A DNA stretch of 10,606 bases from a virus, in UHGV virus genome UHGV-0084128; one strand, written 5' to 3'. Every line of letters starts with the position of its first letter. Positions within the stretch are counted from its first letter, which is position 1. The translations under genes and the position numbers were made by a program. Of the stretch, positions 2,693-10,606 are shown in pieces. The notes beneath the pieces were generated by a model. It was not told the origin of the DNA and made no database searches. It was given only the letters and a program-made list of their open reading frames with translations.

Positions 2693-4825
2693 TCAAACTC
2701 CGGTTGTAATTGGAACCCAGTTATTTTTGCCTATAGCCGTGCAAAGATACTGAAATCCACTCGCCGTGTTAACATACACGGCACCAGGTTTGCCTGATAT
2801 AACCCCATTTGGGGTGCCATTACCTGAAATAAAAATGAAACCATTCTGGAAGGATACACTTTGAGTGTAATCACCTTGTCCTACCTCTCTAGCCATATCT
2901 CTAATGGCGCAGGCCCACGTACCCGCATTAGATATATTAGATATATTATCACCAGACAGCGGCGCAATAGCGATCATTGGGATTGAATTATCCCCACCAT
3001 ACCCCCGAATATTTGATATTTCTCTCTGCACAATTGTATCAGTGAGATCACGAATAAGTGGTACGGTTACTGTATCCTCACATATAAAATTTCTTATACA
3101 ATAGTCATCGACGGCAGCATTAGTTTCTATGTGGATTAAACCTTCTGATGTGGTATTGGATGCCCCACTATATCCACCAGTCCATTGAATACCGTCAAAG
3201 TTTAGATATTTAGCACCGCCAGTTATATATACATTACCGCCACCACCAATAACACGAAGATTTCTTACGTACACGCCAAAGAAACCTAGAACGTAAACTG
3301 CACGAGCGTGAAGCGACATATATTTAGCGTTATTTGCGTTATCAGACGTGCAATCCTCAATCACTGAATTACGTGCTTGTTGATGTTGCCCGGAAGGTAT
3401 TGTCTGTGAGTTTCGATGTTCAATTTGGAAACTGTAAACACAATCTTTTGCATAACAACGAATGAATCTGACACTTCTGGCGGGCATTGTAGTGGAGTGA
3501 CCTTTTTGTTGAAATCCAGTGATAACATTTTCAGCATAACAATCCATTACTGTGACGTTATAACTTCCTTCATCAATTTCAATTCCGTGTTGGTTATCAT
3601 TCCATACTTGAGATGGGTCATCGTTCCATACTCGGCATCTGTTTATAACTATATCGCTGCTGTTATGTGTGGTTATAAGGTCGTCAAGTTGCGTATTTCG
3701 TGCAGACACATCTTCAACCAGAATGTTATAGCTCCCCCCAACAGCATTGTTGTCGATATTACCATCATCAAAATAGTATCCAGCACAAATATCAATTCCG
3801 TGCTGTAGTCCACGCTGAACATACACGCGCTTGATAGAGCTATTCCTTACCGTAGATAGTAGAATGGTAGTACCCTGCGTTGCATCCATCCATGTTTCAG
3901 TTGGGTTTCTCGCCCTGTTGTTAGCATCAACACCCAGGTCTTCAATACTAATATCCGTATCGTAGTTTGTCCGGAATACCTTGTACTCGTATAGTTCATT
4001 CTGGATGCAGTTTTCAGTTATCGGCATCGAAGCAAGGGCAAGGATGGTTGTTTTCAGTTTTCCTGCACCGCGCAATCTAACGTGAGATGGTACTTTCAGT
4101 GCAGAGTTAATCCCGTAAGTACCTTCAGAAAGAATAAGCTCTTTCACCGTTGCCATTTTTGCCTCTTGCAGTGCTTTGTTCAATTTATCATGATAATCCG
4201 TTACTCCATCTGGAACAATTCCGTAATAATCAGCATACACTTTATTGCATATCCTTTTCCAACGCTTTCCACCAGGCGTGACAATTATCATTCCATCATC
4301 ATCTTCTGAAGTATTATCTGTTGAATCATACTCAAAAAAACCGCCACCGATACCAACACCATCACTATGCTCAATAACATTTATTAATTGACTTTCAATT
4401 GTTGGTTCTATTAGACGTAAATCATTAATATTTTTGCATCTCCCTATGTATTTAAAACCATCCGGTCCAATTAATCTCAACTCTAATTGGTCAGGGTTAT
4501 ATTTCAGAATGTTTGGGTAGTAAAATTGTTGCACTCCATACGCATCATAAACAGCCATAGAATGGCCTTGCACGGTTACAAACTTGGCAATCTGTCCGTT
4601 ATATACAGGGTAACCAGCAGCGTTAATGATGATTGGTTGCGATACAGGAACGTGAGAGCCGTCTTCGTTCTCTACATAAACCTGAATCCGGTTTTCAGGA
4701 TTTACAGGGTCAGTGTCAATTTTACCGATATAAATTTTGCCATTGGCTACGGCTTTAAAAGAACGCGCCATAGTGAAGAGTTGCGAAGGCATCGATACGA
4801 TCACATTGGCTGTAATGTCTGTCAT
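2693..4825 (-). CDS. 9: Tailspike protein (710 aa): P22-family head-binding domain plus a distinct receptor-binding/depolymerase domain
   Basis: First ~110 aa ([59 protein letters not shown]…) match the conserved P22/Sf6/HK620 tailspike N-terminal domain; the remainder is Gly/Asn/Ser/Thr-rich as expected for a beta-helix domain; SD GGAG upstream; 710 aa equals the HK620 tailspike length as I recall it. Confidence 0.9.
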
Positions 4826-4883
4826 TTAATTTGCTCCAGATACAAGGAATCACCGAAGCATGGCTACGATGAATTTTGGGCAT

Positions 4884-4906
4884 AAAAAAACCCAGCCGAA
4901 GCTGGG
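4884..4906 (-). terminator. Rho-independent terminator between ant and the tailspike gene
   Basis: On the minus strand: hairpin CCCAGC-ttcg-GCTGGG followed by TTTTTTT (plus-strand A7 at 4884-4890). Confidence 0.6.
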
Positions 4907-4925
4907 TCGTTGCGTTGGTTATCTG

Positions 4926-5828
4926 TCAGTAGTTATGTACTGAAGGAGGTAATTCTTTATTCTTAAGTCTCATCCATGCGGAAAGATTCGTTGGTCCGTC
5001 TGGCTCATTAATATCAACATCTCGTGTGTGATTGATTAAAACGTCTCTCGCCATTCCGATAACATACGAGAATTCATGGCCATAGTCGTAGCATCTGCCG
5101 GAATAGTTCGATTGAATTTGTTTTAGCGCCAGATACAGTTCGCGGAATAATGCCTGTGAGCGGTTGGCATAATCCCATAACCATACAAGGCTGTTTGCTT
5201 CTTTTGCAGAAAGCTCGTTGGTTTTCTTCTCTTGTTTGCCGATAAATTCACCTTCAAGCACTACCCTGTGGATGTACTCTACGGCTTGCGGTATCTGAGA
5301 TGCATCAAGCTCTTCAATACTTTCCACATTGAAACGCTGATGAATCATTGCATAAGCTTCTGGGTACATTAGATGCTTTTTGCTGACTAGCATATTTACA
5401 GCATCACGAAGCTGAGTCCTGTCATCAACAGATGTTTTCTTACGTGCATTTTCTGCCTTTCCCTTTGTCCAGTAGTCATGCAGTACAGTAAAGCATTCTT
5501 CCTGGTACTGAATCAGTTTATCACGGATGTCAGCACGAACTTTCTCAGGGTTGATGCTGAACAGCCATCCATTTAACTTCTTCAAAGGAAGGCAGAGTAG
5601 CTTACGAAGCTTCCCATCAGCGGCAACCATGTTCATATGAACACAGTTGAATTTGCTAATCTGCTTCATGAGTTTTGTTTGCTGCGTTGACCAGCTCATT
5701 CCAAGGTTTTCAACGATTGGCTTCATCGCAACATATGCAACTCCGGCAGCCATGGCGGTGATAATTTGCTGACCGTTGAATGGTACATAAGAGGTGTTCA
5801 CTGCTTCTAAAATTGCTATACTATTCAT
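4926..5828 (-). CDS. ant: Antirepressor Ant (300 aa)
   Basis: [26 protein letters not shown]… matches my recollection of the P22 Ant N-terminus; start at the internal ATG (5826-5828), which gives the 300-aa size expected for Ant, rather than the ORF-track start at 5894. Confidence 0.9.
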
Positions 5829-5896
5829 GTTGGTTTTTCTCCACGGATTTACTGACAACCGAAGCCCTGACTGTTCCCGCAGTTGGGGCTTCAACT
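5829..5896 (+). ncRNA. sar: Candidate sar antisense RNA complementary to the ant ribosome-binding region
   Basis: P22 immI encodes a ~68-nt antisense RNA across the arc-ant interval. Here a plausible -10 TATACT (5817-5822) with a weak -35 lies inside the ant 5' end, and a hairpin GAAGCCC…GGGGCTTC (5861-5892) sits at the 3' end. Boundaries are approximate. Confidence 0.45.
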
Positions 5897-6058
5897 TTAC
5901 GCGCCAATGCGCCCTTCCTTCTTAAAGCTTTCCATTACTCTCTGATAAATCTCAGAGTTAACAGACCGACCATTCTCTTCCGCCACCTTGCGGACCAAAT
6001 CCAATACTTCTTTAGGCCACCGCAAATTGAACTGCGGCATCTTGCTCATTCCTTTCAT
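5897..6058 (-). CDS. arc: Arc repressor (53 aa, ribbon-helix-helix)
   Basis: [53 protein letters not shown], near-identical to P22 Arc as I recall it; SD GAGGTG upstream; ORF-track N-terminal extension rejected. Confidence 0.95.
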
Positions 6059-6073
6059 ATTCACCTCACAATA

Positions 6074-6092
6074 TAGGTCCACCGTGGACCTA
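6074..6092. promoter_or_regulatory. Mnt operator (O_mnt)
   Basis: Near-perfect palindrome TAGGTCCACCGTGGACCTA located at the predicted Pant transcription start, as in P22. Confidence 0.8.
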
Positions 6093-6126
6093 TTGAGAAT
6101 ATAGTAGAGTGCTTCTATCATGTCAA
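6093..6126. promoter_or_regulatory. Divergent, overlapping promoters Pant (minus strand) and Pmnt (plus strand)
   Basis: Pant: -35 TTGACA (complement of 6121-6126), 17-nt spacer, -10 TATATT (complement of 6098-6103). Pmnt: -35 TTGAGA (6093-6098), 17-nt spacer, -10 TATCAT (6116-6121). Confidence 0.7.
6101..6121. promoter_or_regulatory. Arc operator (O_arc)
   Basis: ATAGTAGAGTGCTTCTATCAT is the reverse complement of the 21-bp P22 arc operator as I recall it; it lies in the Pant spacer and over the Pmnt -10. Confidence 0.8.
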
Positions 6127-6148: not shown

Positions 6149-6400
6149 ATGGCTAGAGATGATCCGCACTTTAACTTCCGTATGCCTATGGAAGTAAGGG
6201 AGAAATTAAAATTCAGGGCGGAGGCGAATGGGAGATCAATGAACTCCGAGTTGTTACAAATCGTCCAAGATGCTCTATCAAAACCATCGCCTGTGACTGG
6301 ATATCGCGACGATGCAGAACGACTCGCTGATGAGCAGTCAGAGCTTGTTAAGAAGATGGTGTTTGATACGCTGAAGGATTTGTACAAAAAACCCACCTGA
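6149..6400 (+). CDS. mnt: Mnt repressor (83 aa, ribbon-helix-helix)
   Basis: MARDDPHFNFRMPMEVREKLKFRAEANGRSMNSELLQIVQDALSKPSPVTGYRDDAERLADEQSELVKKMVFDTLKDLYKKPT, near-identical to P22 Mnt as I recall it; SD GGAG upstream; divergent from arc-ant. Confidence 0.95.
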   Translation: MARDDPHFNFRMPMEVREKLKFRAEANGRSMNSELLQIVQDALSKPSPVTGYRDDAERLADEQSELVKKMVFDTLKDLYKKPT

Positions 6401-6416
6401 AGGTGGGTCCTATTTA
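6386..6416. terminator. Bidirectional intrinsic terminator shared by convergent mnt and the lipoprotein gene
   Basis: AAAAAA-CCCACC-tgaa-GGTGGG-TCCTATTTATT; the hairpin contains the mnt stop codon; U-runs on both strands. Confidence 0.6.
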
Positions 6417-6836
6417 TTAGTCTTGCTTTGTTGATGGTATAAGAGATGCGTTTGCCTCTTTTGGCTTCAAGGTATACATCCCACCATTAAAAGGATCTAC
6501 AGCAAGCCAACCAATTAACCCACCAAACACAAGGTTTCCACCAATATACCAGCCATTAGCATTGGCTTTGATTGGCAGGGTAACTGGTTCGTACCCATCC
6601 TTTTCCATAGTGATCTGGTAGCTCTTTTTGCCAAAATAACTACCATCTGACTTGGCAAGAGTTACTCCTTGCGGGGTCTTACCTTGCGCAACAATCACGC
6701 CTGATTCGTCTTTTACCTTAAAGCTCGCACCGGAAGGATTGCTGTTCACTTGCACAAGCTGCGTTTCGTCACCAACAATAGTTGCGCACCCAGATAACAA
6801 TATAGCGCCAGCAACGACGCCAATAATCCTCTTCAT
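6417..6836 (-). CDS. Lipoprotein with a PEGA-like domain and a C-terminal Gly-rich hydrophobic segment (139 aa precursor)
   Basis: Signal peptide MKRIIGVVAGAILLSGC with lipobox LSGC; PEGA-like motifs (NPSGASF…GKTP…DGYEP); C-terminal WYIGGNLVFGGLIGWLAVDPFNGG. Start at the second ATG (6836) because it yields a canonical lipoprotein signal. Confidence 0.7.
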   Translation of the reverse strand: MKRIIGVVAGAILLSGCATIVGDETQLVQVNSNPSGASFKVKDESGVIVAQGKTPQGVTLAKSDGSYFGKKSYQITMEKDGYEPVTLPIKANANGWYIGGNLVFGGLIGWLAVDPFNGGMYTLKPKEANASLIPSTKQD

Positions 6837-6953
6837 ATCAATTTCCATATTTAAAAAACCGGAAACATCCTAATGACAAAACATTCAAATGTGAAGTAGG
6901 CAAAAGATGTTTACTTTTTTCATGGTATCCTGCTCAAAACTAAGGAGGTTGGC

Positions 6954-7343
6954 GTGAAGCAATTTCTTACTGCTATGTTCTTATTCATATCTTTTGGGGC
7001 TACAGCAGAGTGCTGGGTCGTTGGAGATATGCGCGGAATAAGCTATTCAGAACGAAATAATTTCCATCCGGAAGAAGATGGTTTTAGTGGAACATTCATC
7101 ATTAAGACAAACGGTGAAGATGCCAGCATCACATATTCTGGGACAGATGCGGGCGGCATGGCTTACAAAGCATTGTCTAAAAACTCCATCATAGGAATCG
7201 GCGCGAATGGCGAAACTCAACGCGTTATCGACTCATGGGTAATACATCCTACTGGAACAGTTTTAATGTCAAAAACCATTTCCGGTTATGGAAATATGGA
7301 TTCAACCAAAGCTTTTGTTGGAAAAGTAAAAAGAAAATGTTAG
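6954..7343 (+). CDS. Secreted or periplasmic protein of unknown function (129 aa precursor)
   Basis: GTG start with strong SD AGGAGG (6943-6948, 5-nt spacing); signal peptide MKQFLTAMFLFISFGATA with A-x-A cleavage site; mature protein has Cys at both ends; convergent with gene 16 and divergent from the lipoprotein gene. Confidence 0.65.
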   Translation: MKQFLTAMFLFISFGATAECWVVGDMRGISYSERNNFHPEEDGFSGTFIIKTNGEDASITYSGTDAGGMAYKALSKNSIIGIGANGETQRVIDSWVIHPTGTVLMSKTISGYGNMDSTKAFVGKVKRKC

Positions 7344-7367
7344 CGATTGAATCCAATTTCCCATACG

Positions 7368-9209
7368 TTACTGCTGTGTTGCCTCAGTAGCAAACAGCGG
7401 TCTGATGGCATTCGCAGCGTTATTTATCGCTCTTTCATAGGCTGGTGTTCCTGCTTTGGTGTTTGCCAAACGAAGAAGCATATTCCTTGCTGCTTTGGAC
7501 TCATACAAGCGCATCATTGCACCAAAACCAGCCTCAAGCCCCATTGATACGCCAAGGGTCGCAGTTGCGCCAATCGTCCTTATCCTGTTGGCTTGCGATT
7601 GCCCCGTCTGAGTTACTACATTTGCGGTGTCTGACCTTGCTGTTTGCTGTAGAACTTCATGAAGAGCATCAAGCTCTTTCATGTGCTTTCCAGAAAAAAT
7701 AGTGTTGTAAATTTCACCGCCTGACTGAGATTTCAGCTTATTAACTTCAGTGATGAACTTGGCTGGAGAGTCCCCGGCCTTTTCCGCTATTTTGCTGACG
7801 TAAGCTGCACGCATAGCATCTTTCCCCTTATCATCCAGTGCGCTCCAGATTCGTTTCACGTCAGATGGTTTTCTGCTTAATACAACGGTATTTATAAGTT
7901 CAGGACTGGCTTCACTGCTTGCCTTGTTGAGCTTGTTGGCAATGTTTTTATTAAGCACCTTATTATAAACGTTTGCATAATCGGAATTTGCTTTAAGGTA
8001 TTTTGCTGCGTCTGATGCACCGAGGTTTTTAGCAACTGCGTTACGAAGGTCTTTTGACATTGCATTCTCTACCATATTGGTAGCTGCTTTTGCCTGGTTG
8101 GGGAAGACCATAGCATCTCCCTGAACATTAGATCTAAATGCTGTTCTGTGCTGACGCAAGAGATCAAACGTAACATCCAAATCAGTTGCAGGGTTTGCTA
8201 ATTCTTCACGTAGGTTACGCAAGGATGTAAGCAGGCTTTGATTGGCAGACGTCCCAAGCCGTTCCTGTCTTGCGATCGCTGTATTCAGAGCATTCATGGT
8301 ATTTGTGGTATCAACTGCGGCATTACCCATTTTATTGGTGACGTCATTGATAACAGCGCCAGCGGCATCCTTCCGCCCCCTTAACGTGGTGGTCAGAGAT
8401 TTCACCACATCATCAGGGTTGTACTCACCAAAACGGTCAAAATAATTGCTTACCAGCTTACTCCGCGTTGCATATTGCTCTGCTCGCTTTGAGCCCGTCC
8501 CGAGCAAAGCCCCCTCGGCATCCTGAGTAAGGCCGCGAGTGAAAGCATTTTTCGGCGGGATAACATCAGATGTCATTGGTGTCACGCCCATCGATTCTGA
8601 TGTGGCAATTTTCTTCGCCACTTCTGGCGCAATATCACCTTTTATAGCCGTTATTCCACGCCCTATTCCCTTTGCTGCTGCGGAAAGAACACCCTGAGCG
8701 GCAAGGTTAACTCCGGCATTTTTAGCTGCATTTTGTGCGAAATCGCCTTTCTGATTTGCGGCCTCTGCCAGCGATCCAATAGCCATGCTTCCTGCCGTTC
8801 CAACTCCTGTAACTAAATACCCACCAATTGTTTCACCGGCTTGTGCGTATGGGTCTGTCGGTTTGTCTACTGGACGATAAACATCATCCAAAACTTTTGG
8901 CCCACCAAGCCCCTGACTGATTGCATTAATCAGACTTGCGCCACCCTGCAATACGTCAAATGGTATGTTTACCAGACCACGACCAGCCTGTTCTGCAATT
9001 TGCCCTGCACTTTGACCACCAGTGAGCCAATCGCCAGCTTGTTGCATCAATGATGGTTCTTCACGTACTGGTGCATTATTGGCCTGATTAACTGTTTGTT
9101 GCTGAACAACCTGACCAGCAAAATAATCATCAATGGCGGCTCCAATATCTTCCGTGCTCGTACCATCAGGGAAGGTAAATGTCTTACCGTTTGCAGTTAC
9201 TTTCATCAT
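7368..9209 (-). CDS. 16: DNA-ejection (injection) protein gp16 (613 aa)
   Basis: N-terminus [23 protein letters not shown]… as I recall for P22 gp16; Ala/Gly/Asn-rich; start codon overlaps the stop of the upstream gene. Confidence 0.8.
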
Positions 9210-10606
9210 TCCACCGTAAATTGAATGCCTGATTTTGAGGTATATGATCCAACCTGATTCCGTGGTTCTCCTGAAGGTGTCGAATCTTGTGCTGGCGCTG
9301 CGTCAGTATTCAATGACATATACCGCTTAACGGCACTCCCCAATGATTCACCTTTTTTAACATCCAACCCCAATATCTGACCGCCATTACGCGATTGTCC
9401 AGGATTGCCATTCGCGCTCATCCACTCAGCTTTAAACTCATTAAACTGCGCGTTTCGTCGCTCAAGGTTTGCCATTGCATCAAGCCATCTTGCGACCGTC
9501 TCAGGGTTATCCATGTCAGTTGGCGCACCCTGCCGAACGATCTCAACGTCTTTATCCGTTGCTGGGCCGGGAGGCAGGAATTTAAGAACCTGACTGTTAA
9601 CAAGGGCATTTTGGCGGATGCGCAAATCACGCAATGTCGTATCGCTTCCGGTAAGTTTTGCGAACATGTTCTGTGCGTTACCGAACAAACCTGTCGTTGG
9701 TTTTTCTGCTCTGAACTGTTGAGCAAGCGCACTCATAGAATTGGCTGAGTTTGATGATGCTGTGGCATTGTTTACAGCCGTCTCGATACCTTTTTCCATG
9801 TTTACTGACAGCTTAGGTGCTTCACTAATCAACTGCTGAGCCTTTTCCTGCGCTTGCTGCATCTTAAACCCGAACTCTTGCTGATCCAGAGCCAAGCGTT
9901 GTGCTGCGATATTGTGCCCAGTCATTGCTGACTGATAGGAAAGGTTTTGCCCTCTCGCCTGAAGTGCTTCACCAGCCTTATTGCTGCGGATTGTCTCTGC
10001 CAGCCTGCCTCGGTCAATTTCACGACCAGCCATCTTATCCTGAACAGCAAACGCCTTTTCTGGTCCAAGCGCACCGAGAGACATAGTAGTCAGCATGTGT
10101 GATAGCTGCTCTGGATTCTGGATACCTGTCTGAATCATCCAGTCAGCATTAGCACCAACGCGATTTAACCTGTCCTTGTTGTCAGTAATGAATTTACTGT
10201 AGGCTTCCGGTCCCTGAGAAAGAGCGACGTTAGCCCTCATGGCTAAATCGCCCATATCGTTGCGTTGCTGATCATTAAGACCAGAAAACGCCTGTTGTGC
10301 CTGTGCAACAAACGCTGGATTTTCCTGGGCAAACTTAAATAGTCCCGACGGATCACCAGAAGCCCATGCATCAGCGTGAACCTTATTGAACGCACTAATC
10401 GCTTTCTGTTGCTGTTCCTGATTGTAAATATCAGCAACTCCAGCCAGACCATGTAACGCGGTCAGACCAACGTTATTTGCACCTGAGCGAGCCAACTCAT
10501 TGTTTTCGCGGATCAGACCAAGCGTTGCGTTAATGTCGCTTGCCTTTGGCGCATTCTCATTTTGCGTACCGATGCCAGCCAGAAAACCACCAGAATTAAT
10601 ACCCTG
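9206..10606 (-). CDS. 20: DNA-ejection protein gp20; 5' end lies beyond the window
   Basis: Reading frame is open from the window edge (…[45 protein letters not shown]…) to TGA at 9206-9208; Ala/Gln-rich; sits immediately upstream of gene 16 as in P22. The ORF-track TTG start at 10495 is not the true start. Confidence 0.75.

Follow-up and report, generated by a model that had tools for sequence, protein, structure and literature searches.

A Hex-family protein with a Sec signal peptide, encoded at the gene 16 junction of a P22-like phage, is a candidate periplasmic superinfection-exclusion factor

Introduction

What might a temperate phage do with a small exported protein that is encoded beside its DNA ejection genes, on the strand opposite to the late operon? 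This question was raised by an open reading frame (ORF) at 6954–7343 of virus genome UHGV-0084128, a stretch of 10,606 nucleotides that is referred to as the window throughout. A preliminary description had presented the product as a secreted protein of unknown function that is expressed from its own promoter, and had named the adjacent lipoprotein as a potential partner. Small exported envelope proteins such as Sim of P1, Llp of T5, Cor of phi80 and N15, and Sp of T4 block the entry of superinfecting phages, and Cor and Llp among them are lipoproteins. The reading frame, protein family, predicted structure and genomic settings of the ORF were analysed computationally, and a function is proposed that is weighed against three other explanations.

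Results

The ORF converges on gene 16 in a P22-like genome

The window corresponds to the right arm of a temperate P22-like phage (Lederbergvirus-type), with the following features.

1440–2633, + strand: integrase
2693–4825, − strand: tailspike gene
4926–5894, − strand: antirepressor gene (ant)
5829–5896, + strand: sar antisense RNA of immI (Rfam match, 95.6 bits)
5897–6121, − strand: arc
6149–6400, + strand (same strand as the ORF): mnt, Arc/Mnt repressor (Pfam Arc and Repressor_Mnt)
6391–6408: GC-rich hairpin, located between mnt and the lipoprotein gene and labelled in epsilon34 as a rho-independent terminator
6417–6848, − strand: lipoprotein gene (lipobox LLSGC, weak PEGA-like domain, phrog_6823; equivalent of epsilon34 gp15)
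6849–6953: 105-nt spacer from which the lipoprotein gene and the ORF diverge
6941–6949, + strand: Shine-Dalgarno (SD) sequence TAAGGAGGT, read directly, 4 nt ahead of the start codon
6954–7343, + strand: Hex-family (phrog_2651) coding sequence, 129-aa precursor, GTG start, TAG stop (ORF list, phrog_2651 match)
6954–7007, + strand: Sec (SPase I) signal peptide MKQFLTAMFLFISFGATA, predicted cut after A18 (sequence features, family statistics)
7008–7340, + strand: mature 111-aa protein, predicted closed up-and-down beta-barrel
7344–7367: 24-nt spacer between the stops of the ORF and gene 16
7368–9209, − strand: gene 16, DNA ejection protein, convergent neighbour (PGAP "P22-gp16 family phage DNA ejection protein" in an identical E. 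coli locus)
9206–10495, − strand: gene 20

The sar RNA, arc, mnt and ant are all present, which indicates that the immI region is intact. The ORF has 129 codons followed by TAG at 7341–7343 (ORF list), and the stop of gene 16 at 7368 lies 24 nt from its own stop. The convergence with gene 16 and the orientation against the late operon, both described before, were thus borne out. A terminator-like hairpin was not found in the spacer at 7344–7367, the fold of which was unexceptional (z −1.6).

The ORF is a real gene that starts at GTG 6954

The comparison set consisted of the window and 82 related loci (80 IMG/VR viral contigs, phage Emek and the E. coli A35 prophage). The reading frame was intact in all 83 copies, which represent 37 distinct sequences, and pairwise dN/dS in the mature region was 0.06–0.10; the ORF is a real gene under purifying selection. 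It was present in 147 of 5426 complete E. coli genomes, where every copy is chromosomal and annotated as "hypothetical protein", and the Salmonella phages Emek and ST-35 also carry it.

A 9-nt match to the anti-SD sequence, TAAGGAGGT at 6941–6949, is followed by TGGC (4 nt) and then by GTG at 6954. This combination of a perfect SD with a GTG start, already remarked on in the preliminary description, was kept in about 70 of the 83 loci; in a second allele the codon homologous to GTG 6954 is ATG. The homologues at 62% and 46% identity all start with M-K/E/R followed by a hydrophobic core. The conserved SD-GTG pair, the ATG of the second allele and the N-termini of the homologues together favour GTG 6954 as the start. 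The PGAP start in an identical E. coli prophage, ATG 6975 (122 aa), was rejected because it removes the n-region, the homologues keep a Met-Lys/Arg n-region upstream of it, and the SD serves the GTG. The annotation of start sites in this family is inconsistent between databases (6975 against 6954 in the window; 8126–8494 in locus L003); the Emek record uses the 129-aa reading and the PHROG profile starts near residue 14.

The precursor carries a Sec signal peptide and paired cysteines that are conserved in the family

The precursor begins with MKQFLTAMFLFISFGATA and continues with ECW. It has K2 in the n-region, a hydrophobic core of 12 residues and Ala at −3 and −1 of the predicted cut (A-T-A before E), which gives a signal peptide of 18 aa and a mature chain of 111 aa with ~12.0 kDa and a pI of 7.0. 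Thus, of the "secreted 110-aa protein" put forward earlier, the secretion signal held, and the length of the mature chain has to be corrected to 111 aa. Among 108 aligned family members, position −1 of the inferred cleavage site was A/S/G/T in 100, position −3 was A/S/V/T in 91 and K/R occurred in the n-region in 106, so that the earlier assignment of a classical Sec signal with an A-x-A site is matched by an SPase-I-type signal peptide whose sites are kept family-wide.

Cys20 (7011–7013) is the second residue of the mature chain and Cys129 (7338–7340) is the last. A Cys at mature +2 was present in 108/108 members and a C-terminal Cys in 107/108; when cysteines after residue 13 were counted in 106 members, 39 had two, 50 had four, and the number was even in most. 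In the divergent homologues (62% and 46% identity) both cysteines and the signal peptide are retained, the latter with a diverged sequence. The signal peptides, the residues at the cleavage sites and the cysteine counts of the family are the marks of an exported, disulfide-bonded protein, in agreement with the earlier suggestion that the terminal cysteines could form a disulfide in the periplasm. We infer from these features that the ORF protein is periplasmic and that Cys20 and Cys129 are joined.

A lipoprotein reading was rejected, as the lipobox [LVI][ASTVI][GAS]C is absent and the cleavage region is A-T-A-E-C, with Glu before Cys; the residue preceding the +2 Cys across the family is mostly E/S/Q/D/N. 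In this respect the ORF protein differs from the lipoproteins Cor and Llp.

The ORF protein belongs to the family of phage 434 Hex

The ORF protein matched phrog_2651 (E 2.9e-61) in PHROGs, and Hex of phage 434 matched the same group (E 1.4e-58). In BLASTP the two proteins aligned end-to-end with 27% identity over 133 columns (pairwise E 3e-12). When the mature part was used in a relaxed tblastn, full-length matches of ~30% identity were obtained to Sf6 gene 38 and to the gene directly after cI in 434, lambda-imm434, Sf101, HK446, HK633, Huey and Chlobot. In 434 this post-cI gene, annotated "repressor protection protein", is hex, and Hex is Sf6 gp38. The Hex sequence (434 hex at L004 2375–2851) consists of MIRIAALLSILLTTSANS before the cleavage site and a mature part that runs from ECW to FVGDVVGTCNQ. 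A signal peptide, an E-C-W mature start, an ETW/DSW motif and a C-terminal FVGxVxxxC are therefore common to Hex and the ORF protein, and the ORF protein has the architecture of the family as a whole (signal peptide, Cys at mature position 2 with an aromatic residue, C-terminal FVGxVxGxC). The phages that encode them are temperate and either lambdoid or P22-like, and each gene is placed and oriented as cargo expressed in lysogens typically is. The two proteins differ in that their identity is only ~27–30%, and in that hex lies directly after cI (PRM operon of imm434 phages), whereas the ORF adjoins gene 16 within the region of immI and sieA.

An exhaustive profile search of 1.84 billion representatives gave 126 clusters at E ≤ 1e-3 and 41 at E ≤ 1e-10, nearly all of 120–145 aa. 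Almost all of them have x-C-W and a C-terminal Cys besides a signal peptide. The search recovered a Hex-like protein (P0049, E 6e-13) and a truncated Hex (P0142). A profile search of genome contigs with the close alignment gave a single locus, and an index-limited family search added few proteins. The ORF protein had no match at E ≤ 1 in Pfam and none in the NCBIfam and PADLOC scans, and a Pfam scan of 109 relatives gave no meaningful match (E ≤ 0.01), the family being without a Pfam model. PDB sequence searches with the close and family profiles (E ≤ 10) returned noise only, and tblastn at E ≤ 10 detected no similarity to the ORF protein beyond Hex homologues. Thus, the ORF protein is no orphan; it adds a member, at a genomic position new for the family, to the known but poorly understood 434 Hex/phrog_2651 family. 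The preliminary description, in calling its function unknown, had overlooked a characterised relative. Both the assignment to the Hex family and the localisation are very probable.

Published data on Hex are compatible with a secreted protein

According to the account of the work of Susskind and Botstein given in PMC3564112, Salmonella lysogenic for lambda-imm434 excludes P22 and lysogens of hex− prophages do not, a phenotype termed "heterologous exclusion". The same paper (Shkilnyj et al, 2013; PMC3564112) found that a hex− lambda-imm434 prophage is induced ~30-fold more frequently in recA+ cells, an effect absent in recA−, and that a fragment of Hex (sHex) inhibits RecA-stimulated cleavage of the 434 and P22 repressors in vitro. 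A cytoplasmic activity was proposed there for Hex; a 158-aa reading was used, export was not considered and the paper makes no mention of a signal peptide. Over-expression of full-length Hex was lethal, which was left unexplained (PMC3564112).

When the 158-aa reading was translated, Glu43, at which sHex starts by mass spectrometry, was found to be the residue that follows ...TTSANS, i.e., the first residue after a predicted signal-peptidase site (between ANS and E). The fragment ends at Asn103 and corresponds to residues 19–79 of the 134-aa Hex, about half of the predicted barrel. The Glu43 start, the half-barrel span and the lethality of the full-length protein fit a secreted protein. Given these data on sHex and the export marks of Hex, the exclusion phenotype was weighted above the cytoplasmic mechanism. 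Nothing emerged from literature searches on a periplasmic reading of Hex, on "repressor protection protein" or on the RefSeq protein accession.

The predicted fold is a small closed beta-barrel

AlphaFold2 with the family alignment gave a model with a pLDDT of 94.2 and a pTM of 0.83, in which a detached N-terminal helix (the signal peptide) is followed by nine strands that form a small closed up-and-down barrel; a shallower alignment gave the same topology. In the model, the first strand has Cys20 at its start and the last one has Cys129 at its end, and a Cys20–Cys129 disulfide that closes the barrel is plausible. The residues conserved in the family (C, W, G, ETW, FVG) look structural.

Foldseek against PDB and BFVD gave no match at E ≤ 0.001. 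The best fold matches were weak (E ≥ 0.016, TM ~0.4–0.5), and those at the top included FABP/CRABP, avidins and nitrobindin as well as the outer-membrane barrels NspA, OmpW and PagL. The Cap15 barrel domain, the NHBA C-domain, the MliC/PliC-like PhiA, avidins, FABPs and NspA/OmpW are small 8-stranded barrels whose likeness to the ORF protein is one of fold class only; they differ from it in sequence (identity 4–14%), share no motifs with it and have no Pfam link to it. The predicted fold class is thus clear, and it points to no function or partner. Of the homology and fold searches that the preliminary description had advised, the former found the family (phrog_2651/Hex) and the latter gave generic matches only.

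The ORF occupies the slot used for sieA in P22

Measured from the ORF start, the 3′ end of gene 16 is at +414 in the great majority of the 82 related loci, and the ORF/gene 16 junction is constant although the identity of the gene 16 3′ end ranges from 82% to 100%. The upstream side is variable; only 30–47 nt, SD included, travel with the ORF, and beyond this linked segment the neighbours represent at least 15 contexts. In P22 the order is mnt(+), orf59a(+), sieA(+), 22 nt and gene 16(−). The ORF and P22 sieA therefore share slot and orientation: each converges on gene 16 as the nearest gene to its stop and lies downstream of mnt, with gaps of 24 and 22 nt, respectively. Both are prophage cargo. 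The two proteins are unrelated: SieA is a polytopic inner-membrane protein, whereas the ORF protein is predicted to be a secreted beta-barrel with one cleavable hydrophobic segment. A tblastn with P22 SieA matched only P22 itself among the loci compared, and neither the window nor the related loci gave a match. SieA acts on gp16/gp20, and the gp20/gp16 conduit has been proposed as the target of its interference (PMC10883804).

Many contexts have the ORF at the end of a string of genes on one strand, with an Mnt-type repressor at its head (mnt-cargo-ORF), for example mnt-orf94-orf149-ORF, mnt-orf239-orf182-ORF and, with the ATG allele, a tight mnt-orf111-ORF operon. In this ATG-start allele (L076 4593–4928; L077–L087) a second small secreted protein is encoded between mnt and the Hex-like gene; it has 111 aa, starts with MRFLSLFLLAVVSSSSA, belongs to phrog_3870, and its start overlaps the mnt stop. 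The arrangement suggests a compact lysogenic operon of two exported proteins.

One distant member was found at a P2-like prophage end, where a tail-fibre gene and an integrase fragment adjoin it, another in an AlpA/KilA-N-BstA/DUF927 element, and a third between two integrases. In Rahnella (L088–L090, ~3844–5743 and 8001–8402) the distant member is convergent with a tail-fibre gene that bears a P22-type Head_binding domain, and the same P2-like prophage carries variable defence-like cargo between tail genes (GmrSD_N/FRG, or RelA_SpoT/ParA-like). The settings of close and distant members together characterise the family as cargo of temperate phages and integrative elements, and its genes tend to lie in regions of lysogenic transcription, following cI in imm434 phages and mnt in P22-like ones.

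Expression of the ORF and the lipoprotein gene upstream

Consensus and relaxed scans of 6849–6953 for a sigma-70-like site on the + strand found none with at least 8/12 matches, the best having 7/12. The only promoter-like site, TTCACA-17-TAGGAT (6895 to 6867), is on the − strand and would serve the lipoprotein gene. If a promoter lay within the conserved 47 nt, transcription would start inside the SD. The proposal that the ORF has its own promoter therefore found no backing: the 105-nt spacer is without a + strand site of at least 8/12, only 30–47 nt are linked to the ORF, and relatives lie in mnt-led strings. In related phages mnt is probably the head of a lysogenic transcription unit, and Hex is co-transcribed in the PRM-cI-hex operon of 434. 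The ORF is on the mnt strand, but in the window the − strand lipoprotein cassette and the hairpin intervene. Two options remain for expression here: the spacer may hold a weak or activated promoter, or transcripts from Pmnt may read through the 6391–6408 hairpin and the antisense lipoprotein gene. From the orientation of the ORF and the arrangements in its relatives, we infer that it is expressed in the lysogen.

The lipoprotein gene is located upstream of the ORF in only 23/83 loci, and a dedicated pairing of the two products was rejected for this reason; the lipoprotein gene is an independent cassette between mnt and the ORF. With its own − strand promoter-like site and a terminator hairpin, the gene looks like a self-contained moron on the late-operon strand. 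The lipoprotein has the lipobox LLSGC with Ala at +2 and a PEGA-like domain (E 0.004); a weak "Cor" match covers its signal peptide only.

Discussion

We propose, with a probability of about one half, that the ORF protein is a lysogen-expressed periplasmic superinfection-exclusion factor, by analogy with Hex and SieA. A 129-aa precursor would be exported by Sec and cut after Ala18, and the mature product would be a soluble barrel of 111 aa with its first and last strands tied by the Cys20–Cys129 disulfide. The ORF is temperate-phage cargo in the slot on the gene 16 side that P22 uses for sieA and, being transcribed against the late operon like mnt, would be made in the lysogen. The protein could then act on incoming phages (above all P22-like ones) in the periplasm, no later than when their DNA passes the envelope, and a possible route is interference with the ejection-protein conduit or with another envelope-penetration function of the virion. 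For a periplasmic protein in the sieA slot beside the ejection-protein genes, an envelope block to superinfecting phage is the most economical hypothesis. The inhibitor or immunity-type role in the lysogen that had been suggested before is plausible. Several points stand against exclusion. The phenotype is carried over to the ORF subfamily by analogy, at an identity to Hex of ~27–30%, and the sole biochemistry on Hex proposes a cytoplasmic activity that blocks RecA-stimulated repressor cleavage and not an envelope block (PMC3564112). In addition, the ORF is without a recognisable + strand promoter and is separated from mnt by the − strand cassette and hairpin, the generic fold points to no partner, and PADLOC gave no match.

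The published mechanism of Hex leads to another explanation, in which the protein, or a cytoplasmic fraction of it, binds the prophage repressor, blocks its RecA-stimulated autocleavage and lowers spontaneous induction. The ~30-fold higher induction of hex− prophages, its recA dependence and the in vitro inhibition for 434 and P22 repressors (PMC3564112) are in its favour, as is the origin of the window from a P22-like phage. We consider such stabilisation of lysogeny improbable for the ORF protein, since the signal peptide, SPase-I site and paired cysteines place the mature protein across the inner membrane from RecA and repressor, and the active sHex (19–79 of 134 aa) is only about half of the predicted barrel. 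Furthermore, members occur in elements with unrelated immunity, such as the P2-like prophage end and the integrase islands, and the ORF is linked to gene 16 and not to the repressor. A periplasmic location would also suit a protein that benefits the host and raises lysogen fitness as an inhibitor of, or immunity protein against, lysozyme or an exogenous envelope enzyme or toxin (MliC/PliC-, Ivy- or T6SS-immunity-like). The fold class is compatible with this role, which we regard as unlikely, though less so than stabilisation of lysogeny: neither the ORF protein nor its 109 relatives have a match to Pfam MliC or another family, the profile-versus-PDB searches (E ≤ 10) contained no inhibitor or MliC/PliC chain, and in the structural matches soluble and membrane barrels score alike. 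Moreover, phage exclusion is the only phenotype recorded for any family member.

The appearance of FABP/CRABP, avidins, nitrobindin, NspA, OmpW and PagL among the top fold matches, and a phage record that labels a Hex homologue "PagP", could instead be taken to indicate a calycin-like periplasmic ligand carrier or a miniature outer-membrane barrel in place of a protein-protein inhibitor. All of these matches are weak (Foldseek E ≥ 0.016, TM ~0.4–0.5) and the conserved residues look structural. For a membrane barrel, 111 mature residues are short for eight membrane-spanning strands, and barrels of the OmpX/PagP/NspA type have membrane-spanning strands and an aromatic C-terminal beta-signal, whereas the ORF protein ends in KVKRKC and many relatives add polar residues after the Cys. 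We consider a carrier or an outer-membrane barrel improbable.

An extension of the exclusion reading to the whole family is more tentative than the reading for the ORF itself. It is possible that Hex-family proteins are soluble periplasmic exclusion factors, and that one of them replaced SieA at the gene 16 junction and blocks the ejection conduit or another envelope-penetration function from the periplasm. If so, they would be a new class of protein for superinfection exclusion in enterobacterial temperate phages, and confirmation would add a soluble periplasmic player to the prophage blocks on DNA delivery by short-tailed phages. Hex, the sole characterised member, bears every mark of export, in conflict with its published cytoplasmic mechanism; were the periplasmic reading true, the RecA/repressor mechanism of 434 Hex would need re-examination, and its phenotypes could be indirect. 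The link to Hex and the sieA slot, and the family-wide evidence for export, are added here, and this link gives a testable function to the "hypothetical protein" of 147/5426 complete E. coli genomes.

Other observations on the window

The end of the integrase (2633) and the end of the tailspike gene (2693) are separated by a gap of only 59 nt, and the tailspike gene of the prophage integrated in E. coli A35 borders host torT instead of the integrase. The window therefore reads across attP and represents an excised or virion form of the genome, not an integrated prophage. The longest ORFs of ant (TTG start, 322 aa) and arc (74 aa) both probably start too far upstream; their Pfam domains begin at residues 36 and 25, respectively, and in the identical E. 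coli locus ant has 300 aa and arc 53 aa.
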